Assembly: GCA_942493285.1 (NCBI GenBank)
Contig: OW818691.1
Span: forward strand, 8,030,532-8,094,531
From: an uncultured Myxococcia bacterium
GTDB lineage: Bacteria > Myxococcota_A > UBA9042 > PHBI01
Reading direction: 5' to 3'
DNA length: 64,000 nucleotides
Part shown: positions 4,635 through 59,249 of the stretch, piece after piece
Numbering within the stretch: position 1 is the first letter of the stretch
Layout of the letters: each line of letters starts with the position of its first letter
Notes under the pieces: model-generated
Seen by the model: only the letters and a program-made list of their open reading frames with translations
Databases searched by the model: none
What the model was told of the DNA's origin: nothing
Position numbers and translations under genes: made by a program

Positions 4635-6983
4635 TCAGACGACGATGGTCGGAAGGGTCGGCTCGAGGATGTACCCGCCGTCGCTTCGGATCAGCACGCT
4701 CGCAAGGCCCATCTTCCGAAGGGTCCCAATAGCCGTGTAGACCCGGTCGGCCGCAGCTTCGGTGATGAGCCGCTCGCCGGGCCAGCCAGCCGCCGCGAGG
4801 TCATTCGTCGTCGCCGCGATGCCGGGACGCGCAAGCCGCAGGTCTATCAGATATGAGAGGACACGCCGCAGTGGGGGCCGCGTCTTGAGGTCGACGCGCG
4901 GGCCCCCAGGTGGCTCGAACCAGTAGGCCCCCACGCCCACCTGGAGCGTGCCCTGGGCCGACGTGGACCCGACACCCGGGAGGGCGTCGAGTCGTTCACG
5001 GACCTGGCCCAACGTGCGTTGGCGCCCGGCGTTCATCGCCAGTGCCATGGCCTCTTCGAGCAGGGTTCGCGCCAGACTTGACTGGCCGCGGAGCCGAGCG
5101 ATTTCGGCGCGGACGAGGTGGACCTCGACGGTCGCCTGTTGATCACCGACGAGCCGCGCGAGCCCGTCTGCTTCCATGGCCGAGGCCTCCGCCAAACCCA
5201 TGTCGCCGCACGACACCGCGCAGGTGGCTTCCCGGGTCAGGATCTTGGTTCTCAGGAGGGGATCGCCGATGCGCACTGCCAGGTCTCGAGCTTGCGCAAA
5301 GCGCAAGAGCGCCGTTTCATGGTCGCCGCGCTCGACGGCGGCGAACGCGAGATTGGTGACGGCCAGCGTTTCGATTCGCAGGGCGCCACAGAACCGCGCG
5401 GCACCTAGCGCTTCGAGGTACGAGGTGTGTGCCTCTTCGACCCGGCCCGTCATGAGAGCCGCCGAGCCATAGTGGAGCGCTGCCCAGGCCGCGAGGACTG
5501 CAACGCCCTTCGCCTGTGCGGCGACCTCTCGGCACAGTACCAGCGCGCGCTCCCCGCGGTTGGATTCCCGGTCGATGGCGCTCATGACGAGAGAGGCCTC
5601 GAGTTGGTCGCGCTCACTGCCGAATTTCCTGGCACATTCGATGAGTGCAAGGGTGTCGGCCTCGGCCTCGGCGAGTCGACCCTGCAGGTAACGAAGGCGT
5701 GCCCTCGCGTTCATCAAGCGCACGACGCCGCGCCCGCTCATGTCACTCTCGGCCGGACCCATGGCACGTCCGAGCGCACGGCTCAGGATAGCATCGGCGG
5801 CCTCGCCGTTGCGGCCCGACAAGTGGCAGGCGAGTGCCAGGGCAAGCGGCACGAGGTGTTCGAGGTCACCGCTCGCGAACGCGTCGTCGTGTGCGGCGAA
5901 CAGGTCGTCGGCCAGTCGTTCGAAGGTGGCCCGGGCCCGGCTCGGGTCACCATCGAGCAGGTCGGGCAGGGCGGCCTCACACTCGGCCGCGAGCACTTCG
6001 CGATGCCGTTCGTGGTCGGACTCGTCCTGGAGCGATGCTGCAAAGCAGCGCACGGCGTCGTAGAGGCGAAAACCCTCGGCCACGAGTGACGACGCCACGA
6101 GGCGCTCGAGACCCGCGACGGTGTCCACGAGGGTGCGGCCGGAGAGGCGCGTTGCGAGGTCGAGGTCGAAGCGACCGGCCACGGTCGAGAGGCGCACGAG
6201 CAGGTTGCGGTCGGGCAGGGTGAGGCGGTCGAAGGACCAGGCGACCGTATCTGCAAGGCTGTGGTGGCGAGGCTCGGCGTCGACCGTCTCACGTTTGAGC
6301 GCAAGCAGGGTCGACGGTGCGCTCGTGAGGTGCTCGGCCAGGTCGAGGTGGGCGTGACTCGCGTACAGCTCGATGGCCAGCGGTAGGCCGTCGAGGCGGG
6401 CGACGAAACGTGTGTCCAGGTCGGCCACCAGGTCCGGACGGCGTGCCCCGACACAGCGCTCGAAAAGGGCCTTCGCGTCTTCCACGTTCAGGCCGCCGAG
6501 TGGGATGACCTGCTCCACCGCGAGGTCGAGTGGGCGGCGCGAGGTCGCGAGCCAGACTGCATCGGGACACGCCTCGAGCCAATCGGCGAGCCTGCGTCTG
6601 AGCGCAAAGGCGTCGTCGCGCGCGACATCGAGCCCATCGGCAGCGTCGAGCACGGTCAGGGTCCGTCCACGGGCCGCGAGTCGCTCGGCGAAGGTGTGTC
6701 GGTTGGATGCGCCCAGAGCGATGGCGATGGCGTCCAGCGCCGCGAGCAGGTCTCTACGCGGGCCGAGGTCGACCCAGGCGACCCCACCCGGAAAGCAGTC
6801 GCCCAGGTTCGCCGTGACCGCGCGTGCGAGCGTCGACTTGCCGACCCCACCCGGGCCGACGAGCGTCACGAGTCGCCCCGTTTCCGACAGCACCGCGGCG
6901 CGTGTGCGGTCGAGCTCCTGGCGACGGCCGATGAGCGGAAGGACCATGGTCGACCCTTCGCAGGTCGCCCTCGCCGCGGTCAA
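4635..6983 (-). CDS. STAND-type NTPase (P-loop/NB-ARC-like) with TPR-like helical repeats and a C-terminal OmpR/PhoB-type winged-helix DNA-binding domain; putative transcriptional regulator
   Basis: Walker A GPGGVGKSTLAR near the N-terminus and Walker B-like LTVLDAADG. The long Ala/Leu-rich middle region is TPR-like. The C-terminus LRRVLSYLIDLRLARPG...AAADRVYTAIGTLRKMGL...LIRSDGGYILEP matches the trans_reg_C wing motif (RLRkKl...i.tvrg.GY.l). Confidence 0.7.
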   Translation of the reverse strand: MTAARATCEGSTMVLPLIGRRQELDRTRAAVLSETGRLVTLVGPGGVGKSTLARAVTANLGDCFPGGVAWVDLGPRRDLLAALDAIAIALGASNRHTFAERLAARGRTLTVLDAADGLDVARDDAFALRRRLADWLEACPDAVWLATSRRPLDLAVEQVIPLGGLNVEDAKALFERCVGARRPDLVADLDTRFVARLDGLPLAIELYASHAHLDLAEHLTSAPSTLLALKRETVDAEPRHHSLADTVAWSFDRLTLPDRNLLVRLSTVAGRFDLDLATRLSGRTLVDTVAGLERLVASSLVAEGFRLYDAVRCFAASLQDESDHERHREVLAAECEAALPDLLDGDPSRARATFERLADDLFAAHDDAFASGDLEHLVPLALALACHLSGRNGEAADAILSRALGRAMGPAESDMSGRGVVRLMNARARLRYLQGRLAEAEADTLALIECARKFGSERDQLEASLVMSAIDRESNRGERALVLCREVAAQAKGVAVLAAWAALHYGSAALMTGRVEEAHTSYLEALGAARFCGALRIETLAVTNLAFAAVERGDHETALLRFAQARDLAVRIGDPLLRTKILTREATCAVSCGDMGLAEASAMEADGLARLVGDQQATVEVHLVRAEIARLRGQSSLARTLLEEAMALAMNAGRQRTLGQVRERLDALPGVGSTSAQGTLQVGVGAYWFEPPGGPRVDLKTRPPLRRVLSYLIDLRLARPGIAATTNDLAAAGWPGERLITEAAADRVYTAIGTLRKMGLASVLIRSDGGYILEPTLPTIVV

Positions 6984-25260: not shown

Positions 25261-28200
25261 TCAGCCCGGGTCCTTCGGCCGACGCACACGCGCGCGCTCC
25301 GTCGGAGGCTCCTCGCTCGGCTTCACCGTCGCTCCGCCGACCCCACCCAGCAGCGCCAACAGCTCCCGCGTGAGGGCCGTCGTCTCGTCGAGGTTCTTCG
25401 TCGCCGCCCGCGCCACCGGGATCAACGCGTCGCGCAACACCTCGTTCTGATGGGCGAAGAACGCGCTCAGGTCCGGCGCCGCCACCTCGACCTTCACGTC
25501 CGGGACCCGCACCATCGGCTGCGGAACCGCCGGTGGTGTCGCCACGGCCGCCGCCTTCGCCGCCGTCCCAACCGGCGCCGCCCCCGACGGCGCCACTCCT
25601 CCGCTCACCGTCAATGGTCGCCTCAACGCCTCACGCAACGACGCGATCGCCTTACCCAACTCGCTCACGGCCTCGGCCATCCGCTGCCCCGTCTCGTCGG
25701 CCGCGCCCACGCCCACGCCTGCGCCCGCGCCCGCGCCCACGCCAGCGCCTGCGCCCGCGCCCACGCCAGCGCCCGCGCCCACGCCCGCGCCTGCGCCCAC
25801 GCCCGCCTCCGCCCTCGCTCGGTCGACCCGCTCGGCTTGCGCCTCTTGCGCCGCGACCACCTTCTGCGCCGCCTCGACCAGCGCCCCACGAATCGACCCC
25901 AGCTCACGCCCCATCAAAGACAACTGGCCGGTCACCCGCGTCGCCGGGTCATCCTCCTTGCCGCCGAGCTGGTTACGCCGCACATACTCGCCCTTGATGG
26001 CCTCCCAGCGCTCCTTCTCGGCGCCCTTCAGCGTCCCGCGCAATTCCTTGAGCTTCAAGATATTCGCTTCCGCCCCGGTCGTCAGCGTCTGCGCCTCGCC
26101 CTGGTAATGCCCGTCCAACAACCGCTCGAGCTCGTCGGGCGTCAGCGCCGCCACGACCTTCTCGGCCAGCTTGTTCATGTTGCGGTAGCTGCCCTGCAGC
26201 TTGAAGGGCGGCTCCGTCCGGTAAGCATCCGCAGTCGCCGCCGACGCGATGTACTGCAGGTTGACCGCCAGCAGGACCTCCTGGCACCGGATCAACAGCT
26301 TGAAGATCGAGAGAATCTCGCTCAGCTCCGCCGCCGAGTACCCGTGGCTCAGGTCGGTCGTCGCCACCTGCTCGCCCTTCGCCATCCGGATGAGCTTCAG
26401 AATGTCCCCCGCGTCGCGCGCCGCCAGCGGCGCCAACACCGAGTTCGCCGTCAACGAGTTCTCCAGATAGCTCAGTGCAAAGGCCTCCTTCTTGCCGTCG
26501 AGAATATCGCCAAGGTTGTAGATGTCGGCGCGATTGGCCAACATATCCGGGATCTTGAACGCCTCGCCGCCCTCGGTATAGGGGTTGCCCGCCATGACCA
26601 CACAGAACTTGCGGCCACGCATGTCGTAGGTCTTGGTCCGCCCCCGCCACACACCTTCGATCTTACGCTGCCCGTCGCACAGCGAGATGAACTTCTGCAG
26701 GAACTCCGGATGGGTGTGCTGGATGTCGTCGACCAGCAGCATCACGTTGTTGCCCATCTCGAGCGCAAAGTTCAGGCGTTCGATCTCCTGGCGCGCCGTC
26801 GCGTTCGGCGCCTCCTGCGGGTCCAACGACCGCACATCGTGTCCCAGGGCCGGCCCATTGACCTTCACGAAGACCATGCCGAGTCGGCTCGCGACGTACT
26901 CCATGAGCGTCGTCTTGCCGTAGCCCGGCGGCGAGATGAGCAACAGGAGCCCCATCAGGTCGGTACGCTTCGCGTCGCCCGCGGCGCCGATCTGCTTGGC
27001 CAGGTTCGCCCCGATGAGCGGCAGGTACACCTCGTTCAACAACTGGTTGCGCACGAAGCTCGACAAGATCTGCGGCTTCACCTCGTGGATGCGCAGCTCA
27101 CGTTTGCGCCGCTCGATGAGCCCGGTTAGCAGGTCTCGAAACGCCCGATACCGCGGCACATGATAGGCCCGATAGCTCGAAATCCGAGACAACAGCTCGT
27201 CGAGCCGCACCTCCAACTTGCGCTCGACGACCCGCCCATGCTGGCCGAGCAACCCGTCGACGCTGCCTCTCACCCGTGCCTGGCTCGTCTCTCGCGACAG
27301 GCCCGGCGTCACACACACGACGGCCGCCTCGAACCGATAGGGCCCGAACCTCTCCGGCTCGATGGCCGCGACCGCGTCCACCCAGCTCTTCGCCAGCGCC
27401 AGCCGCCCGGCGACATCCCCATCCAGCGCTCTCAGCTCGTCGTCGAGCCGCGGATTCTCCCGCCGCACCTTGTCGACGAGCTGGTCGCTCTCGCCAGTCG
27501 TCGTGAAGTAGACCGGCTCACGCCCGAGCTCAACGACCAGGAACCGCGTAGCCTCGTCGACCACCGCCTGCACCGCCAAGGCCGAGATCCCGATCTCACG
27601 ACACCACTCACCGACCTTCGCCGCGATCTCTGCCGCCAGCGTCGCCCCGCCCGTCGCCAGGGCCGAGCTCGCGCCCGTCGCCCGACTCGCCCCCAGATGC
27701 GCCAGGCTCACGGCTCGCCGCTGCGCAAACTTCGCCGCCGCCGTCTCGCCCTGATGGTGCCACCACAGAGCCGCCAGCGCCCTCGAGTCAGCCGAGAACC
27801 GTAGCCGCCCGGCCGTCTTCATCATGTCGATGAGCACCGCCAGGATCTTCGTCGCGTCCGCATCATGCAGCCCACGCTCATAACCTTCGCTGTACCGCTC
27901 GTTGGCCACCCCACGCACGAGCTCGAGCAAGGTCTTGCCCTCGCCGCGCTCCGCCGCGAGCAACTCCGCCATGGTCGGCGCTTTCGGCACCCCCAGCTCG
28001 GCGTCCAGAAAGATGCTCGCCGCCAGGAACTCCGCCCGATAGACCTCACTCGTCTCGCTCACCAGCGTCTGGTCCCAGAGCGCCCGCGACTCCACCACGA
28101 CCGGGTCGTCGACCGCCTCGTAATAGTCCGTTCCGGTCAGGTGCAGCGCCAGCCCACCGTCGCGCGGCACGACCGTCATCTCGAAGCTCTGCGTGTTCAC

Positions 28201-30852
28201 GAGAAAGCGGTGCCGCCCGAACTTGATGATGTCGGCGCCGTCTTCGAACAGCTCGAGCTTGTCGCGCAACCCGCGCAACCCGTCTTGTTTCGCGGCCTTG
28301 AGGCGCGAGCCGACCTCGTCGCTCTTCACCGAGTCGCCGAGCTCCAACAGCTGGTCGGCCAGCTGCCGCAGCTTTTGCACCATCGCATCGGCCGCGAAGT
28401 ACGCGTTGAGCTCGTCCTCGCTCTTGAAGGTCCGCGACCGCCTCACGACCCCTTCGATGATCCGTTTGCTCGCCTCGACGAGGTTGGCGACCTTCTTCTG
28501 CTTCTGGTCGAGTAGCGCCTGCTTCTTCGCCGCGAAGGCCTCGTAGACCTCCTCACGTTTCCCCTGCAGGTCTCTGACGAAGACCTCGTGCTCCGAGAAG
28601 CGCCCCTCGAGCTCTTCGAGCTGTACCATGAGGCGCGACAGCCCGGTGTCACACGCCTCGGGTGTCTCGCTCATCGCGAGAGCGGTGCCTGTAGCCTGCC
28701 CGAAGAGCCGGAACTGCGCTGCGAACTCGGCCTTGTCCTCCGCCTGCCCGAGCTCGCTCTTGCGGTTGTTGATCTCGGCCCGCACCCGGTTCATGTGCCC
28801 GAAGGTCTCGGACAACCCTTCGAGGATTTGTGTCCGCACGGTCGGGTCGTCCACCTGCAGGGTCGAGATGGTCTCGCTCAACACCTCCAGACCACGCGCC
28901 AGGTCTTCGATGCCCTTGCGGGTCGGCTCGAGGTCGCTGACCTTCTTGGCCTTCACCCCGACCCCGAGGATCTCATCGAGCTTCTTGCCGAACGGCGCCA
29001 ATGCGTCGTTCTTCGACAAGAAGACAACAGCCGCCTTCGACACCGCGTCGAACAGCTCGCTTGTCTTCTTCTCGAGCCCGTCGATGGCTTTCAGGTCGAT
29101 GTAGCGCACCTCGCGCAACGAGATGAGATGACCCCGCTGTGACCGCAGCGCGCTCATCCCCAGCATAAACCTGTCGATGTCCTTCCAGTGCTGATAGTCG
29201 GTCTTCTTCTCGAGGTCCGCCTGGCTCGCCTGCGCCTCCTTCAACGCGGCTTCCGCACGCGACTTGTGCGCCAGGACCTTTTCGAACTCGTCGATGATCT
29301 GCTCGACGTTCTGGCGGATCTGCACCAGCACGCTCGCCAGGTCCTCACACTCCTCGCGGCCAAGCCAATGGAAGCTGTCCACCATCCGCGTCTGGTGGCT
29401 GACGATGTCCTCGAAGCGTTCACGCGACGGCTCTGGGTGCCGCACCCGCGCGACCAGAGCAAAGCTCTCCGAGATCCCACGCACCAGGTCCGCGTTGCCG
29501 ACCTTGCTCAGAAAGCTCCCGTCCCCCTTCTGGCTCGCCGCAAACTCGGGCGAACAGAACGGGGTCCTCCACACCTGCACCGGGTGCACCCGCACCGCCT
29601 CGTGGCCGACGTGCCGCAAGACAACCATGCGCCCATCGGGAAACAAGCTGTACCCGTCACACGCGATGGGGTTCTGCACCTCGCGCCGAATCAGGTTGTA
29701 CGGAAACAGCAGATAGTCGCCCGTGCCACGATGGTGAAAGACGTAGAGCACGTCCTCGCCGTTGGGGGCCGAGATCTGGCGCTTGAACTCGAGGTCGCTG
29801 ACGTCGAGCTCGAAGAGCTTGTACTCGCCCGTTTGCAAGTAGTAGCCGCCAGGAAACAAAATCCCCTGGTCCTCGGGCAGCGCCACACACGCCTGTCCGA
29901 TGGCGTCGATCCGCACCACCGACTTCGCCCGCGTATTGTAGACGAGGTGCCGATAGGCGGTCTCCCGAAATGGTTTGATTCTCAAGAGAATCAGCGTCCC
30001 CACCTCGGCCCAGCTCAGCTCCATGTCGTCGAGCGACTGGTTCTTGTCCTCGACCGGCTCCGCGTAGATCCCGCGCCCCGACTCGGTATTGTCCTCGACC
30101 TTGATGGTGAGGTCGCCGCCCAACGTCTCGACGAAGACCTTGTCGCGCACCGAGATGTGCGGGAAGCGCCCACGACGCTGGTCTTCACGCACCGACCGCG
30201 TCCACGCGAATGAGTGCGAGCTCGGATAGACGTGGTCGCGTTCCCCTCGATTGTCGAGATAAGTCGCGAGTCCATCCGGGGTCAGTTGCCAGCGCAGGAC
30301 CTTGATGTCGCGATAGGTCGCGCCCACCTGGAAGACCGCCAACAGCTTGTCGGTCTTACGCAACTGGATGAGGCGTGTGTCCTTGTAGTACTTGCGCAGC
30401 TCATCGAATTCACGCTGGAAGTTCGCTCCCGAAAACAGCCCGGCGTTGACCTCGTTCGGGTTCACCTCCGAGAAGTCGAAGCCTCCGACCTGGCCTTCCG
30501 ACGCCTCGACTTCCGCGAAGCGGTGCATCGTGAAGACGTCGCTCAGCGTGAACTCGGTCCTCAGCCCCAGATAGACCGTGTAGCCGACGAGCAGGTGGTC
30601 GCCGAGCGCCACGACATCGGCCGGGATGCAGTTGTTCTCGGTGCGGATCCGCTCGTTGCCGATGACCTGCAGCTCGGTCCCACCGAAGGTCGCCTTACGC
30701 CGCTCGTTGAGGCGCCCGGCGCGATTCGACAGCTCGTCAGCGAGCCCATCGAGCCGCCGCTTGAGGACCTCATAGTTGCCGGTCGCCAGCGCCGAGTCGA
30801 CCTCGGTCTTCGCTGTCTTGCCGGTGCTGCCGGTGCTGGGAGGAGTCGCCAT
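25261..30852 (-). CDS. Giant (1863 aa) multidomain protein with a MoxR/AAA_5-type ATPase domain, long coiled-coil regions and a Gly-Ala dipeptide repeat; function unknown
   Basis: Walker A SPPGYGKTTLMEYVA, Walker B MLLVDDIQ, and sensor-1/AAA_5 signature VVMAGNPYTEGGEAFKIPDMLANRA (compare atqNP..g...Lp.AL.DRF). The large N-terminal region (about 520 aa) and C-terminal region are unrecognised. A (GA)n/(GVGAGA)n tract precedes the C-terminus. It lies 4 bp downstream of the flotillin gene on the same strand. Confidence 0.75.
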   Translation of the reverse strand: MATPPSTGSTGKTAKTEVDSALATGNYEVLKRRLDGLADELSNRAGRLNERRKATFGGTELQVIGNERIRTENNCIPADVVALGDHLLVGYTVYLGLRTEFTLSDVFTMHRFAEVEASEGQVGGFDFSEVNPNEVNAGLFSGANFQREFDELRKYYKDTRLIQLRKTDKLLAVFQVGATYRDIKVLRWQLTPDGLATYLDNRGERDHVYPSSHSFAWTRSVREDQRRGRFPHISVRDKVFVETLGGDLTIKVEDNTESGRGIYAEPVEDKNQSLDDMELSWAEVGTLILLRIKPFRETAYRHLVYNTRAKSVVRIDAIGQACVALPEDQGILFPGGYYLQTGEYKLFELDVSDLEFKRQISAPNGEDVLYVFHHRGTGDYLLFPYNLIRREVQNPIACDGYSLFPDGRMVVLRHVGHEAVRVHPVQVWRTPFCSPEFAASQKGDGSFLSKVGNADLVRGISESFALVARVRHPEPSRERFEDIVSHQTRMVDSFHWLGREECEDLASVLVQIRQNVEQIIDEFEKVLAHKSRAEAALKEAQASQADLEKKTDYQHWKDIDRFMLGMSALRSQRGHLISLREVRYIDLKAIDGLEKKTSELFDAVSKAAVVFLSKNDALAPFGKKLDEILGVGVKAKKVSDLEPTRKGIEDLARGLEVLSETISTLQVDDPTVRTQILEGLSETFGHMNRVRAEINNRKSELGQAEDKAEFAAQFRLFGQATGTALAMSETPEACDTGLSRLMVQLEELEGRFSEHEVFVRDLQGKREEVYEAFAAKKQALLDQKQKKVANLVEASKRIIEGVVRRSRTFKSEDELNAYFAADAMVQKLRQLADQLLELGDSVKSDEVGSRLKAAKQDGLRGLRDKLELFEDGADIIKFGRHRFLVNTQSFEMTVVPRDGGLALHLTGTDYYEAVDDPVVVESRALWDQTLVSETSEVYRAEFLAASIFLDAELGVPKAPTMAELLAAERGEGKTLLELVRGVANERYSEGYERGLHDADATKILAVLIDMMKTAGRLRFSADSRALAALWWHHQGETAAAKFAQRRAVSLAHLGASRATGASSALATGGATLAAEIAAKVGEWCREIGISALAVQAVVDEATRFLVVELGREPVYFTTTGESDQLVDKVRRENPRLDDELRALDGDVAGRLALAKSWVDAVAAIEPERFGPYRFEAAVVCVTPGLSRETSQARVRGSVDGLLGQHGRVVERKLEVRLDELLSRISSYRAYHVPRYRAFRDLLTGLIERRKRELRIHEVKPQILSSFVRNQLLNEVYLPLIGANLAKQIGAAGDAKRTDLMGLLLLISPPGYGKTTLMEYVASRLGMVFVKVNGPALGHDVRSLDPQEAPNATARQEIERLNFALEMGNNVMLLVDDIQHTHPEFLQKFISLCDGQRKIEGVWRGRTKTYDMRGRKFCVVMAGNPYTEGGEAFKIPDMLANRADIYNLGDILDGKKEAFALSYLENSLTANSVLAPLAARDAGDILKLIRMAKGEQVATTDLSHGYSAAELSEILSIFKLLIRCQEVLLAVNLQYIASAATADAYRTEPPFKLQGSYRNMNKLAEKVVAALTPDELERLLDGHYQGEAQTLTTGAEANILKLKELRGTLKGAEKERWEAIKGEYVRRNQLGGKEDDPATRVTGQLSLMGRELGSIRGALVEAAQKVVAAQEAQAERVDRARAEAGVGAGAGVGAGAGVGAGAGAGVGAGAGAGVGVGAADETGQRMAEAVSELGKAIASLREALRRPLTVSGGVAPSGAAPVGTAAKAAAVATPPAVPQPMVRVPDVKVEVAAPDLSAFFAHQNEVLRDALIPVARAATKNLDETTALTRELLALLGGVGGATVKPSEEPPTERARVRRPKDPG
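25700..25815 (-). repeat. Hexa/dodecanucleotide tandem repeat encoding a (G-A/G-V-G-A) tract within the giant ATPase gene
   Basis: gcgcccacgcc(c/a)gcgcctgcgcccgcgcccacgcc periodicity on the plus strand. Confidence 0.75.
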
Positions 30853-36455: not shown

Positions 36456-37034
36456 TCAGTGAAGGGCCGGGCGGAGCGGCGTCGTGCTGGCGATCTCCGC
36501 TTCGATGTCGAGCACTTCGTCGAGCCGGGCCTGCACGACTTCGGCCGGAAAGTAGAGTCTCGCCAACCGCAGGTAGTGACCGTGATGGCGTGCCTCGGAG
36601 CGCTCGAGGTCGAGGTAGAATGCCTTGAGCGGGTCGCTCTCCGGCAGCGCCTGCGCGACCAGCGCAAACCGTTCGCAACCTCGGGCCTCGATGATGCTGA
36701 AGACCACGAGCCGGTCGAGCAGGTACTCGTCCACGTCGCGCTTGCGCAACAACGAGAACATCCGCTTCATGTAGGGGTCGGGCGTGTCCCAGCCCAGGGG
36801 CTGGCCGCGTTCCTTGAGGATGACCCACACCGCCCGGAAGTGTTCGAGCTCCTCTTCGGCGATCTCGATCGCCAGGTCGACCAGCTCCGTCCGGGTCGGG
36901 TAGTTCGCCGCCAACATGAGCGCGGACTGGCTGACCTTACGTTCGTTCGCCGCGTGGTCCTGCAGGAATACCTCGAAGTTCGAGAGAACTCCCGTGACCC
37001 ATTCCGGCGGTGTGTCCCAGCGCAGACCCAACAT
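36456..37034 (-). CDS. miaE: tRNA-(ms2io6A37)-hydroxylase MiaE (ferritin-like diiron)
   Basis: About 192 aa. Motifs EELEHFRAV ... FSIIEARGCERFALVA ... YLDLERSEARHHGHYL match the MiaE diiron ExxH ligand pattern and IEARSCERF segment. Confidence 0.75.
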   Translation of the reverse strand: MLGLRWDTPPEWVTGVLSNFEVFLQDHAANERKVSQSALMLAANYPTRTELVDLAIEIAEEELEHFRAVWVILKERGQPLGWDTPDPYMKRMFSLLRKRDVDEYLLDRLVVFSIIEARGCERFALVAQALPESDPLKAFYLDLERSEARHHGHYLRLARLYFPAEVVQARLDEVLDIEAEIASTTPLRPALH

Positions 37035-37105: not shown

Positions 37106-38365
37106 TCATGGCGCCACTGGGGCGACGTGGAACCACCGCTCCCAATCGCGCTTCGTGACCCACATCGTAAACGACGCCGTCGCGCGCATCGACGTGAGCT
37201 CACGCTCCGTTGGGACCGTGATGCGTCGGGTCGATCGGCCCGTCGCGAAGTCGGCGACCAACATGCCCTGGTTCGTGATGAAGCCCATGACCTTGCTCCC
37301 CTGACCGGCCACACGCGGCTCTTCGCCGTCCGCCATCGGGAGCTCCCATCGGGTCCTGCCGGTCATCGGGTCGATGGTTCCATAGACGAAGCCGGTCTTG
37401 CCACCGCGGGCCGGGCGCGCGAAAGCGCCGCCTTCCGAACCGAAAGCCGAGACCTCTTCCTCGCGTAGGGGACGCGTCCAGAGCTCCTTGCCGTTCGAGA
37501 GGTCCCATCCTACCTGCATACCTTCGGACGGCTCGCCGATGACCGCTCCCCCGCTCGGGACGACCTCGTACGAGTAGCCCTCGAACGGCGTCGTCCACAG
37601 TGGCGCGAGGGATTGCAGGCCGTCGCCCTTGGGCTTTCGAGACAGTCGCTGAGCGACGAGCCTGCGCTCCTTGTCGAGCCCCGGCAGGCCGACGCGGCGG
37701 GGCGCCTCGTCAGGATCAAGGGACAGGACGATGGTCTTCTCGACCTTGCCCGGCGGGTCCTGGACGAGGAGTGCAAGCGGGCCCTTCGGGGTCGCGGCGA
37801 CCGCCTCGAGCACGGCACCCCCGACGTTGAACCGTTCGAGGAGGTTGCCGGTCTTCGCGTCGAGGACGGCGACCTCCTCGTTGTCGATGCTCGTGGCGAC
37901 AACGCCCTGGGCGCCGGCCGTGATGTAGAGGTTACGCGAATCGGTGAAGCGCCAACGCTCGTTGCCGGAGGCGAGGTCCACGGCCATGATGGAGTTGCGG
38001 CTCTTACATACGATGCTGTCGTCGACCACGAACGGCTGGGTGTGGGCGTCGAAGTCGGGGCAGGTGTGCGCGCGCGTCCAGAGGACCTGCCCCTTGGCAT
38101 CGTAAGCCTGCCAGACGGCGGGTTGTTCGGCAGACGGGCCCTCGGTCATGACGACCGTGACGTCGTCGGTCCCCGTCATATAGGTCTCGAACGCGTAGAG
38201 CGTGTCGGGCAGGTCCGCCGGGCGGGTAATCGGAGTCTCCTGGGGGAGCGAAGGCGGAGTGGGCTCGGCCTTCGCGGCCGCCGTTGGCACGGTGGCCATG
38301 ATGGCCATCGTGCCCATCGCGGTCGGGGCGAACAGAATCGAAGCAGCAGAGGCGAGGAGGCGCAT
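37106..38365 (-). CDS. Secreted PQQ/beta-propeller repeat protein (BamB-like fold), function unknown
   Basis: Signal peptide MRLLASAASILFAPTAMGTMAIMATVPTAAA. Repeated VLW/ERW/ELW beta-propeller motifs (GQVLWTR, GNERWRF, GKELWTR, GRTRWEL). Confidence 0.6.
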   Translation of the reverse strand: MRLLASAASILFAPTAMGTMAIMATVPTAAAKAEPTPPSLPQETPITRPADLPDTLYAFETYMTGTDDVTVVMTEGPSAEQPAVWQAYDAKGQVLWTRAHTCPDFDAHTQPFVVDDSIVCKSRNSIMAVDLASGNERWRFTDSRNLYITAGAQGVVATSIDNEEVAVLDAKTGNLLERFNVGGAVLEAVAATPKGPLALLVQDPPGKVEKTIVLSLDPDEAPRRVGLPGLDKERRLVAQRLSRKPKGDGLQSLAPLWTTPFEGYSYEVVPSGGAVIGEPSEGMQVGWDLSNGKELWTRPLREEEVSAFGSEGGAFARPARGGKTGFVYGTIDPMTGRTRWELPMADGEEPRVAGQGSKVMGFITNQGMLVADFATGRSTRRITVPTERELTSMRATASFTMWVTKRDWERWFHVAPVAP

Positions 38366-38656
38366 GGTGTGCTCCTTGGGTGATGCGGGGTCGGCGGTGC
38401 CGCCTCGAAGCGAGGCTGGGGACCGGGTGGGAGACGAATGGCTGCGGCTGGTTTACAAACTCGAGCTCGCTCCGACGGACCCTGTATTCTGGCTGTTCTC
38501 AGCCGGACACGCTTGCGCTCGCAATCTGAGACGCGCAGGGGGTCAGTTTGCGACCCAGGCTCAAAGCGGGTCGATTACGGATGCAACCGTCTGTTCCAGT
38601 CTCTTGTCCCCCGCCTCGAACGGCCGCGCCCGCGATCGGGAATGAACGATTTCCGC

Positions 38657-38671
38657 TGGCACGGACCTTGC
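38657..38671 (+). promoter_or_regulatory. Candidate sigma-54 (-24/-12) promoter TGGCAC-N5-TTGC
   Basis: Exact match to the consensus spacing: tggcac ggacc ttgc. It sits in a 600-bp divergent intergenic region. Confidence 0.4.
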
Positions 38672-38682
38672 GATGTCAAATG

Positions 38683-38771
38683 CCTGCGTGTGGTGGTTCC
38701 TCCCTTGTTTCGGCATGTGTTGCGAAGGGAGTTGGCTCGCGGGGTGCTCAGCGCTCCGCGAGTTTTTTTTT
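38683..38771 (+). ncRNA. Candidate small RNA or transcribed leader (about 90 nt) from the sigma-54 promoter to the intrinsic terminator
   Basis: Predicted start about 12 bp after the -12 element. Stem-loop 38701-38730 (tccctt..aaggga). A CCUCCC motif. Terminator hairpin plus T9 at 38735-38771. No ORF. Confidence 0.3.
38735..38771 (+). terminator. Rho-independent terminator (7-bp GC stem ctcgcgg/ccgcgag, then TTTTTTTTT)
   Basis: gctcgcggggtgctcagcgctccgcgag followed by nine T residues, which is very unusual in a ~70% GC background. Confidence 0.55.
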
Positions 38772-38972
38772 GCCCGAGCACGATGCCTTGGAGGCATGAC
38801 GACCGGCCACGTAGTCGGCCTCGCTCGTTCAACGGGCTTCGAGGCGCCCTGATCGCCAGGGTTACGCGCCATCACTCGACGAGGCGGGTGCGTACCTGCT
38901 TTCGCACTTCGGAATGGACATCCGCTTCGGATGTTCCTATGGGAGCGCGCGTGTCGGCCGACCTCGGAGACT

Positions 38973-40310
38973 ATGCACGACCCCGGTTCTCAGCTCCAAC
39001 CCTTGCCCCTCAAAGACCCGCCGCACGGCCCAGGTGACGTCGTCGACTACAATGTCGACGCGCCAAAGCCGCGTTCGCCCACGGGCTCGCATGAGGTGCC
39101 CCCCCGCTCTGGCGGACGCGTCTGGCCATGGCTCGTCGTGGTCGCAGCCCTGCTCGGCTGCGTCTACTCGGCGCTCTCCACCCACAGCTTCATCCTGCGG
39201 CTCGACGGCCAGACCCATGCGGTCGCCTGCGCCATTCTGCCAGGTGACGCCGACCAGTCGACGGGCTGCGTCACAGCACTTCTATCGCCCTACAGCTCGG
39301 TGTTCCGCGCGAGCATGTGGGGTGGCATCCCCATCAGCCTGCCGGCCTTTGGTGTCTTCGCCTTCATCGCGGCATTCGCCGCATGGGTGGGCCTGAAGCG
39401 GGACCGCATGCGGGTCGACACGGGCTTCCTCTTGTTGGCGACGCTCCTCCCCGTCGGGGCCAGCGCGTTCTTCGCCTACATCTCGGCCACCCGGCTCGGC
39501 GAGTTCTGCTCGACGTGTGTCGGCATCTACATCGCGTCGGGGCTCGGCTTCCTCTTCGCGTTGATCGCCCACATCCGAACGCAGCCGACCCCCGACGGCG
39601 TCGGTCGCTGGGGACGCTGGTTCCTGTGGTTCTTCGAGGGCGCCGCCATCGTCGGCACGCTGGTATTGCTCTACATCATGCTCGCGCCGAGCGACCGAGA
39701 GAGCGTCGCACGTGGCTGTGGTGAGCTCGTGAAGCGTGAGGACGAGGCGCAGATCCTCTTGAAGAAGCGCGACTCGACCGAGGCCGTCCCGGGTGTCTCG
39801 AAGGTCTCGGCCCTGGTGGTCGTCGACCCGCTCTGCCCATCCTGCAAAGGCCTCGACGAGCGCCTCTTCGCGAGCGGGCTCGGTGCGCGGCTCGACCTCG
39901 ACGTGTTGTTGTTCCCGCTCGACTCCAAGTGCAATTGGATGGTGAAGAGCTCGCCGCATCCCGGGGCCTGCCTCGTCAGCGAGGCGATGTTGTGCGCGCC
40001 CGAGTCGGCGCATCGTGTCCTCGAATATGCGTACGCCGACCAGGAGCGACTCCTCGAGCTCGGCAAGACCAACGAGTCGGCGCTCAAGGCCGACCTCGAG
40101 CAGAAGTTCCCCGATGTGAAGGGGTGCGTCGGAAGTGCGGCGGCCAAAGCCAAGGTCAACAAGAGCCTTCGGTTTGCGGTCGCCAACGCGATGCCGGTCA
40201 TGACGCCCCAGCTCTTCGTGGCGGGCAGCCGCATATGTGACGAGGACACCGACCTCGGGCTCGAGTTCACGCTGACGCGGATGCTCGACCGTTCCAGTCC
40301 GGTTCAGTGA
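38973..40310 (+). CDS. Vitamin K epoxide reductase (VKOR) homologue fused to a periplasmic thioredoxin/DsbA-like domain (DsbB-analogous disulfide oxidase)
   Basis: Polytopic N-terminal domain with a loop Cys pair and the active-site CSTC (CxxC) in a TM helix. C-terminal soluble domain with CPSCK (CxxC) in a thioredoxin-like context. Confidence 0.75.
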   Translation: MHDPGSQLQPLPLKDPPHGPGDVVDYNVDAPKPRSPTGSHEVPPRSGGRVWPWLVVVAALLGCVYSALSTHSFILRLDGQTHAVACAILPGDADQSTGCVTALLSPYSSVFRASMWGGIPISLPAFGVFAFIAAFAAWVGLKRDRMRVDTGFLLLATLLPVGASAFFAYISATRLGEFCSTCVGIYIASGLGFLFALIAHIRTQPTPDGVGRWGRWFLWFFEGAAIVGTLVLLYIMLAPSDRESVARGCGELVKREDEAQILLKKRDSTEAVPGVSKVSALVVVDPLCPSCKGLDERLFASGLGARLDLDVLLFPLDSKCNWMVKSSPHPGACLVSEAMLCAPESAHRVLEYAYADQERLLELGKTNESALKADLEQKFPDVKGCVGSAAAKAKVNKSLRFAVANAMPVMTPQLFVAGSRICDEDTDLGLEFTLTRMLDRSSPVQ

Positions 40311-41652: not shown

Positions 41653-41985
41653 TCACCTTCCGAACTTGTCGGGGCGTAAGACCTCGATGTCCGCGAGGTA
41701 GATCACCATCGCGTAGTCCGGGTAGAACCGTTGCCGCAAGTGCCCGACGATGCGGGTCGCGACTGCGGTGTCGCAGATCACCTCGATGCGGATGTTGGCG
41801 TTCTGCTCCCAGCTCGAGGTGCGGTGGCCCTGGGCTCCGAGCCCACGCGCCTCGGTGATCGTATAGCCGCGTGCGCCGAGGGTCTCGAGGTCGTGTGTGA
41901 GCTCACGCTCGACGATGGCCTCGGTGATGATGGTCACGAGCTTACGCGGATGGGTCGTCAGCGGTTCAGCCATAGAGCGATTCAA
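41653..41985 (-). CDS. sbtB: SbtB-like P-II-fold signalling protein
   Basis: 110 aa. KLVTIITEAIVERELTHDLETLGARGYTITEARGLGAQG...IRIEVICDTAVATRIVGHLRQRFYPDYAMVIYLADIEVL aligns along its length with cyanobacterial SbtB/GlnB-like proteins. It overlaps the 3' end of the upstream permease gene. Confidence 0.75.
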   Translation of the reverse strand: MNRSMAEPLTTHPRKLVTIITEAIVERELTHDLETLGARGYTITEARGLGAQGHRTSSWEQNANIRIEVICDTAVATRIVGHLRQRFYPDYAMVIYLADIEVLRPDKFGR

Positions 41986-42904
41986 CCAGCCGATGGTAGA
42001 GCGGAATCCCGAAGATGACGTTGAAAGGGAACGTGATGGCGAGCACCGCGGTGAGGCTCATGGCCGGGTTGGCCTGAGGCACGGCTGTGCGCATGGCGGC
42101 CGGGGCCGCGATGTACGACGCACTGGCAGCCAGGGTGGCGAGCAGGACCGCGCCACCGACCGACAGGTCGAGCGCCATCGCGACCAGGGCGCCAATGCAC
42201 GCGAACGCGATCGGGATGACGATGGCGAAGGCCGCGAGGAACAGTCCATATCGAAGGAAGCCTCCGAGCTGCGAGGCCGCGATGAGACCCATCTCGAGGA
42301 GGAAGAGGGCGAGCACTCCTTTGAACAGGTCGAAGAAGAGTGGGGTGATGGGCTTGATTCCGACGGGGCCGCTGAGCCATCCGATGATGAGGCCACCCAG
42401 GAGGAGCAGGATGCCGCGGCCGAGGAAGACCTCGCGCAACAGGTGAGGCCACGAGGTGCGTGAGGTGCGACCCTTCGCGAGCACGATGCCAACGAGGATG
42501 GCCGGGACCTCGAGGATGACGAGGAAGAGGGAGAGCGACGGCTCGTGGGGGATCTGTGCCCGCGTCAGGTAGGCGATGGCGACCGCGAAGGTGGCGACGC
42601 TGACCGAGCCGTAGTGCGCGGAGATCGACGCTGCGTCCATTCGAGGCAGACGGCCGATGTAGCGCAGGATGCCGAAGGCGATGAGCGTCAGCCCGATGCC
42701 GAGCCCGATGATGACGACCACGTCGAGAGCGAGGCCGGGGGCCGGCTGACGTGCGAGCTCGACGCCGCCCTTGAGGCCGATTCCGAGCAGCAGGAGCGCG
42801 CTCAAGAACTCGTAGATCGCCGTCGGCAATCGGAGCTCCGCACGGGCGAGCCCGGCGAGGAGGCCGAAGACGAAGAAGTAGACCGACGGGTCGAGGCTGC
42901 TCAC
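41966..42904 (-). CDS. sbtA: SbtA-family (Sbt_1/DUF897) sodium-dependent bicarbonate transporter-like permease
   Basis: About 10 TM. Conserved IGLKGGVEL (compare IGLTGGMAI). The C-terminal AASASYIAAPAAMRTAVPQANPAMSL closely matches SbtA AASSSDISGPPTLRAGIPSANPSAYI. Confidence 0.75.
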   Translation of the reverse strand: MSSLDPSVYFFVFGLLAGLARAELRLPTAIYEFLSALLLLGIGLKGGVELARQPAPGLALDVVVIIGLGIGLTLIAFGILRYIGRLPRMDAASISAHYGSVSVATFAVAIAYLTRAQIPHEPSLSLFLVILEVPAILVGIVLAKGRTSRTSWPHLLREVFLGRGILLLLGGLIIGWLSGPVGIKPITPLFFDLFKGVLALFLLEMGLIAASQLGGFLRYGLFLAAFAIVIPIAFACIGALVAMALDLSVGGAVLLATLAASASYIAAPAAMRTAVPQANPAMSLTAVLAITFPFNVIFGIPLYHRLVESLYG

Positions 42905-55783: not shown

Positions 55784-56011
55784 GCGTGCAGCGTCTCACC
55801 GACGCCCGGTTGTCACAACTGCGTTGCGGCCGCGCGAAGCTGGCGTGCCATCGGCTCGAAGTCCGAGGATCGGTCGCTCCATCACCTGGCGGTGCGCTAT
55901 CGCCCACCCTGTGTGTTTTACCACACGACTTGGTGTAGGATGGAGCTTCTCACAAGGGGGCCGACATCGTCCGGCCCCTTGAAAATGCTCGCCTGGCGGC
56001 ACAGCGCCGTT

Positions 56012-56027
56012 TGGCACGCATGCTGCT
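56012..56027 (+). promoter_or_regulatory. Candidate sigma-54 promoter (TGGCAC-N5-CTGCT), about 60 bp upstream of usp
   Basis: GG and GC dinucleotides at the correct -24/-12 spacing; the downstream operon encodes a sigma-54 EBP. Confidence 0.3.
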
Positions 56028-56086
56028 AATTCACGCCTTTTGAATAGCGGCCTCTTCGAAATCCGCAGACCACCCGAGAGGACCCC

Positions 56087-56553
56087 ATGCCCCGCAAATG
56101 GATTGTTGCCTTCGACTTCTCCGACGAATCCCGCCTCGCCCTCGAACGCGCCGCGACTCAGCTCTCGGCCCTCGGGGGTGACGAGGTCATCGTCGCCCAC
56201 ATCCACCGCCCGGTCTCGACCGGCTTCGGGGTCGAGTTTGCGGCCTTGTCCCCCGCCTTCCAGAACGTCGACCAGACCATCACCGAGAGCGCCGAGAAGA
56301 AGCTGGACGAAGAGCTCGCCGCCTTCCGCGTGCGCTTCCCGAAGGTGGCCTTCCGCGCCGTCATCGAGAGCGGCTATCCCCCTGACCATCTGGTGGACAT
56401 CGCCTCACGCGAAGACGTCGACCAGATCGTCATCGGCAGCCACGGGCGCAAAGGCCTCCAGCGTTTCTTCCTCGGCTCGGTCGCCGAACGGGTGCTCCGC
56501 TCGGCCGACCGCCCCGTCCTCATCGTCAAGAACACCCCGGGTGAGAACCAGTC

Positions 56554-56557
<4 letters not shown>
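56087..56557 (+). CDS. Universal stress protein (UspA family)
   Basis: About 156 aa; ATP-binding G-x2-G-x9-G(S/T) motif GSHGRKGLQRFFLGSVAERV. Confidence 0.8.
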
Positions 56558-57999
<1,442 letters not shown>

Positions 58000-58142: not shown

Positions 58143-59249
58143 CTACTTCGGCAGGACCATCGTGAAGCGTGTCTCACCCTTCTGCGACGACACGTGCAGG
58201 CGGCCGTGATGCGCGTCGACGGCCTGCTTGACCACAGCGAGCCCAAGGCCCGTGCCCTTGATCTTGGTCGTGAAGAACGGCTTGAAGAGCTGCTCCTCCG
58301 AACCTTCGGGCAGGCCTGGTCCATCGTCTACGACGGCGATTGCCACCTCGCGGGGACCAGAGTTGATCTCGACCCGCACGTGTCCGATGACCTCGTCGTC
58401 CCGGATCTCATGGGGCTGGCGGGAACCCATGATGGCCTGCGCTGCGTTCATGACCAGGTTCAGCAGCGCTCGCCCCAGCAGCTCTGGGTCCGCCTCGATC
58501 GCGAGGTCCGGCCCCTCGATGTCGAACGACAGACCCTGGTGGTGCGGGGTGTCGCGAAAGAACATCGAGGCCTGCTCGACGATGTCGCGCACACTGCACA
58601 AACGGATGGCAGGGGGCCTCGGGCGGGCAAAGTCCAGGAGCCCCGAGAGCACTTCATCGAGGCCCTTCACCCGGGCGATGACGTCACGCAGGATCTGCAC
58701 CTCACGGCTCTCTTGTGGAAGGCGTGAGGCGATGACCTGGATGGCACCCGAGATGCCGGCCAGTGGGTTTCGCACCTCGTGCGCGATGACAGCCGCCATC
58801 TGTCCCAGCTGCGCCATGGTCTCCTTCGTGCGCAGGAGAGCTTCGACCCGCTTCTTCTCGGTGATGTCGTTGCGGATGGCCAGGTACTGCTCGGGCTTCC
58901 CGCTGGGTGTGAGCAGCGGGACGATGGTGGTGTCGACCCAGTAGACCGAGCCGTCCTTGGCGACGTTACGCAGCTCGCCGCGCCACACCCGCCCGTGCGC
59001 GATGGTCCGCCACAGGTCGCGGATGGTGTCCTTCGCGTGGTAGCCCGAGTTCAGGATCCGATGGTCCTGACCGATGAGTTCTTCGCGCGGGTATTTGCTG
59101 ATTTCGCAGAACTTATCGTTCGCGTAGGTAATCTTGCCGGACACGTCCGTCATGGCGACGATGCTCGACTGGTCGAGTGCGTATCGCAGCCGCTCCAGTA
59201 GCGCCTCGCTCCGCTCGAGAGCCTCCGTGGTCATGCGCAGGATCGTCAT
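58143..59249 (-). CDS. Cytoplasmic PAS-domain sensor histidine kinase
   Basis: PAS fold (IVAMTDVSGKITYANDKFCEI...). H-box IAHEVRNPL, N-box LLNLVMNAAQA, G1 DDGPGL, G2 GTGLGLAV. Convergent with the NtrC-family regulator gene. Confidence 0.85.
   Translation of the reverse strand: MTILRMTTEALERSEALLERLRYALDQSSIVAMTDVSGKITYANDKFCEISKYPREELIGQDHRILNSGYHAKDTIRDLWRTIAHGRVWRGELRNVAKDGSVYWVDTTIVPLLTPSGKPEQYLAIRNDITEKKRVEALLRTKETMAQLGQMAAVIAHEVRNPLAGISGAIQVIASRLPQESREVQILRDVIARVKGLDEVLSGLLDFARPRPPAIRLCSVRDIVEQASMFFRDTPHHQGLSFDIEGPDLAIEADPELLGRALLNLVMNAAQAIMGSRQPHEIRDDEVIGHVRVEINSGPREVAIAVVDDGPGLPEGSEEQLFKPFFTTKIKGTGLGLAVVKQAVDAHHGRLHVSSQKGETRFTMVLPK

Follow-up and report, generated by a model that had tools for sequence, protein, structure and literature searches.

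The DNA analysed here, referred to below as the window, is a stretch of 64,000 nucleotides with a GC content of 67% from an uncultured Myxococcia bacterium (contig OW818691.1 of assembly GCA_942493285.1, positions 8,030,532 to 8,094,531). Within it, an intergenic gap of about 607 bp (38366–38972) houses a compact unit of promoter, predicted small RNA (sRNA) and terminator. The original prediction, made by a model from the letters of the window, had placed in an intergenic region of about 600 bp either a sigma-54-dependent sRNA of about 90 nt or a terminating leader of the gene downstream, and the measured gap agrees with it. On one side the unit is flanked by a gene for a PQQ-like β-propeller (lipoprotein) at 37106–38365 on the minus strand, beyond which lies the MiaE gene (36456–37034, minus strand). 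On the other side, about 200 bp downstream of the unit, is the plus-strand gene of a VKOR-family membrane protein, with its start at 38931 or 38973 and its end at 40310. This gene had been described as encoding a VKOR–thioredoxin protein: the distance and the VKOR domain were both confirmed, the latter with Pfam, but Pfam found no thioredoxin domain in the protein. Its homologues come from metagenome-assembled genomes (MAGs) labelled Myxococcota or Deltaproteobacteria. There is no plus-strand gene upstream at the locus that the terminator could serve, which counts in favour of a free-standing gene.

The conservation of the unit was assessed in syntenic loci gathered via homologues of the VKOR protein and by two DNA-pattern scans designed around the conserved core: one of GTDB species representatives, with three matches, and one of metagenomes, with seven true matches along with one AT-rich false match. 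In all, 12 distinct lineages carry the unit, every one an uncultured member of the Myxococcota, namely the lineage of the window and 11 others (individual loci carry L numbers below); an exact 19-mer occurs in only three GTDB species representatives, all of them MAGs. Conservation in related genomes had been proposed as a check on the unit, and the comparison bears it out, the promoter being kept along with the unit in all lineages but one. In the alignments the conserved block begins abruptly at 38686 (GCGTGTGG...) and stops at the terminator, so that the limits of conservation match the predicted transcription start at one end and the terminator at the other. Over its first 47 nt the RNA of every lineage is 94–100% identical to that of the window. 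Identity in the flanks (300 nt upstream, 100 nt downstream) amounts to 55–65%, roughly what we would expect by chance when GC-rich DNA is aligned globally, and rises to 80% on the upstream side of L001, the closest relative. Over the same loci the identity of the VKOR protein falls from 95% to 52–54%. A search with a covariance model trained on 11 members detects a single copy in each locus, scoring 100–112 bits, and no second copy elsewhere in the window.

Another conserved stretch was seen in the same gap. The sequence GGGAGACGA (window 38366–38440), adjoining the start of the PQQ-like gene, is invariant in four aligned loci and reappears at the equivalent position in the remaining upstream regions. 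It is probably the ribosome-binding region of the PQQ-like gene on the opposite strand, and lies outside the sRNA unit.

The promoter of the unit is of the sigma-54, −24/−12 type: TGGCACGGACCTTGC on the plus strand at 38657–38671, with its GG at 38658–38659 and its GC at 38670–38671. It is the exact TGGCAC-N5-TTGC element that had been reported at this position, and it is the only one in the 64-kb window, where shuffled sequences lead one to expect 0.12. With one mismatch allowed there are six matches in the window against 3.2 expected, that is, no overall enrichment of such promoters. TGGCAC-N5-(T/C)TGC is kept in 11 of the 12 lineages, and in each of these the distance from the C of the −12 element to the invariant GCGTGTGG is 13–14 nt, the letters of the spacer (38672–38685, plus strand, containing the predicted transcription start) varying freely. 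A fixed distance spanned by a free sequence is just what a functional −24/−12 promoter predicts, and we regard this pattern as an argument for one. Transcription would then start near 38683, 12 nt after the −12 C, where conservation begins. That this genome uses the sigma-54 system follows from an NtrC-type enhancer-binding protein with a Sigma54_activat domain encoded at 56554–57999.

The single lineage lacking the promoter, represented by L008, L009 and L019, is informative in its own way. Its RNA body is 94% identical and the PQQ-like gene is kept, yet both the −24/−12 promoter and the upstream dyads described below are gone. At L008 4700–4740 a weak sigma-70-like element, TGGCCA-N17-TACGTT, ends 6 nt before GCGTGTGG, which suggests a promoter swap that preserved the 5′ end of the RNA.

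Further upstream, a candidate activator region at 38496–38572 contains the dyad GTCTCAA-N-TTGAGAC in four copies that are phased and imperfect. Two of them, at 38518–38532 and 38540–38554, match best, and those at 38496–38510 and 38558–38572 are weaker; they are spaced by 22, 22 and 18 bp and lie about 110–190 bp before the predicted start. The dyad is common to upstream regions that are otherwise unalignable, being perfect in L012 (GTCTCAAGTTGAGAC) and imperfect elsewhere, and the relatives usually have two copies 22–35 bp apart, centred between −94 and −232. If up to four mismatches are tolerated, the motif turns up 22 times between −240 and −90 in 11 loci (1.66 kb in all) and six times in the remaining 145 kb, an enrichment of about 320-fold. 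This figure is partly circular, since the motif was defined from those very loci. The dyad is linked to the sigma-54 promoter, and not to the neighbouring gene, by two natural variants: L016 has lost the PQQ-like gene and retains dyads and promoter, and L008, mentioned above, has neither dyads nor promoter. The dyad is a likely candidate site for an enhancer-binding protein. No further sigma-54 promoters accompanied by the same dyad were found in the DNA collected for the analysis.

The enhancer-binding-protein gene nearest to the RNA, 18 kb away, belongs to a separate arrangement. A second sigma-54-type promoter, TGGCACGCATGCTGC, is present at 56012–56026, 60 nt before a gene for a universal stress protein (56087–56557) that is followed by the gene for the NtrC-type enhancer-binding protein at 56554–57999; a dyad of a different kind, GTGTG-N6-CACAC, lies at 55911–55926, and a convergent gene for a PAS histidine kinase at 58143–59249 on the minus strand. 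The whole arrangement (55911–57999 and 58143–59249) has the appearance of an autoregulated sigma-54 module with no connection to the dyad of the sRNA, and we do not propose its enhancer-binding protein as the cognate activator, since the dyad upstream of its gene is different.

The predicted non-coding RNA itself, of about 86–89 nt, extends over 38683–38771 on the plus strand and is supported by its fold, by the covariance model and by the lack of a conserved open reading frame (ORF). The fold of a 90-nt version (38682–38771) comprises a weak 5′ hairpin, a first stem-loop and the terminator, with an energy of −39.2 kcal/mol (z = −3.07 relative to shuffled sequences). The G/U-rich 5′ segment, GCGUGUGGUGGUUC (38686–38699, plus strand), is identical in all 12 lineages. 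It is mostly unpaired according to the centroid structure and the pairing probabilities, the minimum free energy and consensus folds adding a short weak hairpin at the 5′ end, and may serve as a seed or toehold. It leads straight into CCUCCC, which resembles the anti-Shine–Dalgarno sequence of 16S rRNA.

Stem-loop 1 occupies 38700–38731 on the plus strand. Its outer stem pairs CUCCCUU (38700–38706) with AAGGGAG (38725–38731) and alone contributes −11.5 kcal/mol; a weak inner helix pairs CGGC (38711–38714) with GUUG (38719–38722). A stem-loop with a CCUCCC motif had been anticipated at 38701–38730 and was recovered, with the anti-Shine–Dalgarno-like motif located in its 5′ arm. All seven outer pairs are invariant in 11 sequences, leaving covariation to speak neither for nor against the stem. 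One inner pair changes from C–G to U–G in two lineages, and in L021 one pair of stem-loop 1 is broken (AAGGGCG).

The terminator is better served in this respect. Its hairpin of 12–14 bp, at 38736–38762 on the plus strand, pairs CUCGCGGGGUGC with GCGCUCCGCGAG across a UCA loop (−24.2 kcal/mol), and a terminator scanner calls a hairpin at 38734–38764 with 14 pairs, nine of them GC. It is followed by a tract of nine U residues at 38763–38771, in keeping with the GC hairpin and T9 run expected at 38735–38771. The T9 run had been thought improbable by chance, and indeed it is the only run of at least seven T residues in the window, where 0.33 would be expected. A tract of T8–T9 (TTTTTGTTT in L008) is kept in eight of the 12 lineages. 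Within the hairpin the six basal pairs (CUCGCG/CGCGAG) are invariant, the seventh is G–C or G–U and the upper stem is variable. Taking the whole 23-pair structure, 99.6% of alignment cells are paired, a figure that falls to 44–54% when the partners are slid by one to three columns. The covariation score exceeds those of all 500 shuffles. Its information comes entirely from the terminator helix, where four pairs have changed on both sides in compensatory fashion.

The DNA between the terminator and the VKOR gene contains a second conserved block, consisting of a dyad, GTGCG-N10-CGCAC (38888–38907), followed by TGGACA-N17-TATGGG (38915–38943). From consensus and conservation, this looks like a regulated sigma-70-type promoter of the VKOR gene. 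The block (TGGACA-N17-TATGRN with its upstream dyad) is kept in all 12 loci examined, including L006, which lacks the RNA. It is conserved as nucleotides, and gene callers choose different ATG codons, in different frames, across it. The true VKOR start is probably the ATG at 38973, which is preceded by a GGAGA ribosome-binding site. The interval that separates terminator and block can be shorter than 50 nt or as long as about 290 nt, and its sequence is not conserved. In assembly JAEUKJ01 the two genes have parted company: the VKOR gene and its block lie beside a pirin gene without the RNA (L006), and the RNA has remained next to PQQ-like and MiaE genes in a different contig (L010), without VKOR. 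No copy of the RNA was found near the VKOR gene in the loci of broken synteny L022, L023 and L025. Since VKOR has a promoter block of its own and the RNA and VKOR can be separated, the predicted RNA is to be seen as an independent gene that resides at the junction of MiaE–PQQ and VKOR. Elsewhere in L006, at 3690–3890 of contig JAEUKJ010000088.1, beyond the pirin gene upstream of VKOR, there are intergenic tandem repeats of roughly 60 bp (ttctcatcggacgagatccgcgcttc...).

Sequence comparison establishes the boundaries of the unit, the retention of its promoter, the enrichment of the dyad and the covariation of the terminator stem, and on this footing we consider it very probable that the unit is an independently transcribed, sigma-54-driven sRNA gene. 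The sRNA reading of the original prediction is hence strongly supported on computational grounds, by boundaries that match start and terminator, by a promoter kept in 11 of the 12 lineages, by candidate activator sites upstream and by a terminator stem that covaries. As a whole, the explanation that we favour, and believe to be probably right, is a free-standing sigma-54-driven gene for an RNA of about 86–89 nt which acts in trans by pairing; for the specific mechanism of pairing with mRNA taken on its own, our confidence is tentative.

The steps of the favoured mechanism, from transcription itself and the identity of the activator to action in trans and pairing, are what we infer from this pattern. 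An NtrC-family enhancer-binding protein would bind the phased dyads of the GTCTCAA-N-TTGAGAC type 110–190 bp upstream and turn on sigma-54 RNA polymerase at TGGCACGGACCTTGC. Transcription would begin near 38683–38686 and stop at the GC hairpin and U9 tract (38736–38771). The RNA would then, most likely, act in trans and independently of Hfq on mRNAs encoded elsewhere in the genome. Its G/U-rich 5′ end may provide the toehold from which pairing invades stem-loop 1 into CCUCCC, so as to cover the ribosome-binding sites of targets.

Several observations weigh against this explanation or parts of it. One lineage of the 12 does without the sigma-54 promoter, and the statistic for the dyads suffers from the circularity already mentioned. 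The U tract is degenerate in four lineages (L007, L015, L012 and L010), in which the hairpin may serve stability more than efficient termination. Stem-loop 1, which never varies, lacks covariation support and has a broken pair in one lineage, and CCUCCC is held within a 7-bp stem and not exposed in a loop. The link between L006 and L010, on which the separation of RNA and VKOR depends, is only as good as the binning of the MAG. A target scan also produced no convincing or recurrent complementary site: duplex energies of the 5′ 22–24 nt were computed, for both strands, over the entire window and over 4 kb of flanking DNA to the left and right of the RNA at 12 loci, and the matches, although reaching z of about −3 to −4, include none at homologous positions or at the start codon of a neighbour. 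The mRNA of a neighbour in cis was accordingly dropped as a candidate target, its duplex matches being at background level and not recurring. Finally, the 47 invariant nucleotides exceed what a pairing seed usually needs, and hint at a protein or the ribosome as partner.

The last point leads to the alternative that survives best, although we consider it unlikely: that the same sigma-54 RNA works by binding a conserved macromolecule, either a regulatory protein or the ribosome, in the latter case via its paired Shine–Dalgarno-like and anti-Shine–Dalgarno-like sequences. In its favour, the 5′ end and stem-loop 1 retain 94–100% identity over 47 nt, as against proteins that have diverged to about 53%, and the invariance extends to loop positions and to stem positions that would be free to covary. 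The sequestration of CCUCCC in a stem and the outcome of the local target scan fit it as well. Yet the sequence contains no repeated protein-binding motifs such as are found in sequestering RNAs, the RNA is short and single-copy, and the absence of targets from about 200 kb says little about a whole genome. In its more pointed form, the RNA would dock on the ribosome or translation machinery, or on a lineage-specific RNA-binding protein, and be a sigma-54-switched modulator of that machine instead of an sRNA that pairs with mRNAs. The grounds for this are that 47 invariant nucleotides far exceed the need of a seed and that the anti-Shine–Dalgarno-like CCUCCC is paired to a Shine–Dalgarno-like GGGAG. 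This version seems to us slightly less likely still; if it were true, such a docking mode would be undescribed for sigma-54-controlled RNAs in Myxococcota.

Compared with these, the other possibility raised at the outset fares poorly, namely that the unit is a terminating leader or attenuator of a VKOR operon, with sigma-54 transcription entering VKOR once termination is relieved. The unit and VKOR are indeed co-oriented and about 200 bp apart, they adjoin one another in 11 of the 12 lineages, and the weak U tract of four lineages makes some read-through plausible. However, the sigma-70-like block with its dyad stands between terminator and VKOR in every locus examined, L006 included, at a widely variable distance and across DNA that is not conserved; RNA and VKOR are on different contigs in JAEUKJ01; the VKOR loci L022, L023 and L025 are without the element; and the folds show no alternative antiterminator pairing. 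A leader function for VKOR therefore appears very improbable, and this half of the earlier proposal finds no support.

The region had also been said to contain no ORF. Strictly, mechanical ORFs do cross it, but none is conserved and none has the GC content at third codon positions typical of real genes. The most conspicuous, a Cys-rich ORF of 59 codons at 38673–38852, acquires an in-frame TGA in L004, L007, L010, L012 and L015, its region suffers 1-nt indels in L004, L011, L014 and L008, and its ATG lies upstream of the predicted transcription start, inside the non-conserved spacer; as a small peptide it was rejected on account of the stop codons and frameshifts. With a dispersed repeat contradicted by the single-copy, syntenic nature of the unit, and with the compensatory changes of the hairpin indicating selection on RNA or single-strand structure, the idea that the unit is a small protein-coding gene, or else a DNA element that is not transcribed, for instance a repeat or a cluster of binding sites, seems highly improbable.

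The remainder of the window is mentioned for completeness. On the VKOR side, a plus-strand gene encodes a protein of 230 residues without known family, and next come, on the minus strand, genes for a P-II-like protein and an SbtA-type transporter and then carB/carA. The P-II-like gene overlaps the end of the gene for the SbtA-type sodium-dependent bicarbonate transporter (41653–42904, minus strand), and the pair, which is kept in L001 and L004, resembles the SbtA/SbtB pairing of cyanobacteria. Farther away, an ORF at 4635–6983 (minus strand) encodes an NB-ARC/NACHT-like STAND ATPase, and another at 25261–30852 (minus strand) a protein of 1863 residues; several other large ORFs of the window gave no match in the Pfam scan.

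Returning to the sRNA gene, its relationship to known RNAs was approached through Rfam and the literature. Rfam 15 searched at gathering thresholds gave no match anywhere in the window. At E-values up to 10, the 600 nt around the site yielded noise only, the best hit being TLS-PK4 with 19.6 bits against a threshold of 80. The Rfam/Infernal search proposed as a check thus matched no family, consistent with a new one. A literature search with the RNA's own sequence returned nothing relevant. Pxr is the sole functionally characterised sRNA of Myxococcota that the literature searches brought to light.

Pxr, the developmental sRNA of Myxococcus xanthus to which the unit had been likened and which other Cystobacterineae also possess, calls for closer comparison. 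For Pxr a sigma-54 promoter is predicted, together with an enhancer-binding region farther upstream; its 5′ stem-loops are conserved, and its 3′ stem-loop varies apart from a conserved stem segment that is needed for accumulation (PMC5684412). It lies directly downstream of the regulator gene Mxan_1078 (pxrR), which encodes its cognate sigma-54 activator, is processed to long and short forms, and is reported to have arisen within the Cystobacterineae; M. xanthus is also reported to lack hfq (PMC5684412). We rebuilt 87 nt of Pxr from a published Northern probe (PMC5568312) and deletion primers (PMC5684412). Local alignment of the new RNA to these nucleotides scores 12, below the mean of 14.5 for shuffled sequences, of which 966 in 1000 score at least 12.

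In design the two are alike. Pxr and the predicted RNA both belong to Myxococcota and have a predicted sigma-54 promoter, a known or candidate enhancer region upstream and several stem-loops, and each combines a conserved 5′ part with a 3′ stem-loop that is variable save for one conserved stem segment. These likenesses are also all that would favour the view of the new RNA as a diverged homologue of Pxr. Against it are the alignment score, the reported origin of Pxr within the Cystobacterineae (PMC5684412) and the genomic context, since the new RNA has a PQQ-like lipoprotein gene on one side and a VKOR gene on the other, without an adjacent enhancer-binding-protein gene, other regulator or two-component gene pair. 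Its hosts, moreover, are uncultured lineages, and sequence similarity to the 87 rebuilt nucleotides is not detectable. Homology with Pxr is hence a most doubtful proposition: what holds of the suggested resemblance is an analogy of design, and neither sequence nor context adds to it. Given the lack of an Rfam match, of similarity to Pxr and of relevant literature, our verdict is that the unit probably encodes a new family of sigma-54-dependent sRNA, of a known kind.

Myxococcota possess very large repertoires of sigma-54 and of enhancer-binding proteins, and the predicted RNA would be a second sRNA family with a sigma-54 promoter in the phylum, unrelated to Pxr and with an unusually clean comparative definition. 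It supplies a ready covariance model, and with the candidate activator-site consensus MAGs can be searched for the cognate regulator and for the members of its regulon. Lineages of the L008 type, with the RNA kept and the promoter apparently swapped, illustrate how the regulation of an sRNA can be rewired. The type of element, a small RNA under the control of an enhancer-binding protein, is already well established, and the present hosts are uncultured.

Among established examples are the Qrr1–4 RNAs of Vibrio. These are sRNAs of roughly 100 nt with −24/−12 promoters, activated by an NtrC-type response regulator (LuxO) that binds at upstream dyads; transcription ends at an intrinsic terminator, and the 5′ region, which is long and almost invariant, pairs with several mRNAs. 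The new RNA is similar in length class, predicted promoter, candidate upstream dyads, terminator and near-invariant 5′ region. The Qrr RNAs, however, depend on Hfq and occur in several copies, beside luxO or elsewhere, in contrast to the single copy seen here, and since Rfam, which includes Qrr, gives no match there is no sequence relationship. GlmY and GlmZ of enterobacteria and NrsZ and CrcZ of Pseudomonas are likewise sigma-54 sRNA genes, controlled by GlrR, NtrC or CbrB and ending in Rho-independent terminators. A sigma-54 promoter and a terminator are also predicted for the new gene, from which they differ in sequence and structure (again no Rfam match), in the consensus of the activator site and in the phylum of the host. 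CrcZ and GlmY act through protein sequestration, a parallel to the alternative in which the new RNA binds a macromolecule.

A comparison may finally be drawn with RNAs whose C-rich motifs act on ribosome-binding sites. In the CcsR or ‘cuckoo’ RNAs, with CCUCCUCCC, and in RsaE/RoxS, an anti-Shine–Dalgarno motif of the CCUCC type serves to block translation of several mRNAs, and Hfq is not strictly required for this. Neither of these families is known to be sigma-54 dependent. Their C-rich motifs are placed in loops or unpaired stretches and are usually repeated. The new RNA shares with them the possession of such a motif, but it has a single CCUCCC, and carries it in the 5′ arm of an invariant stem.

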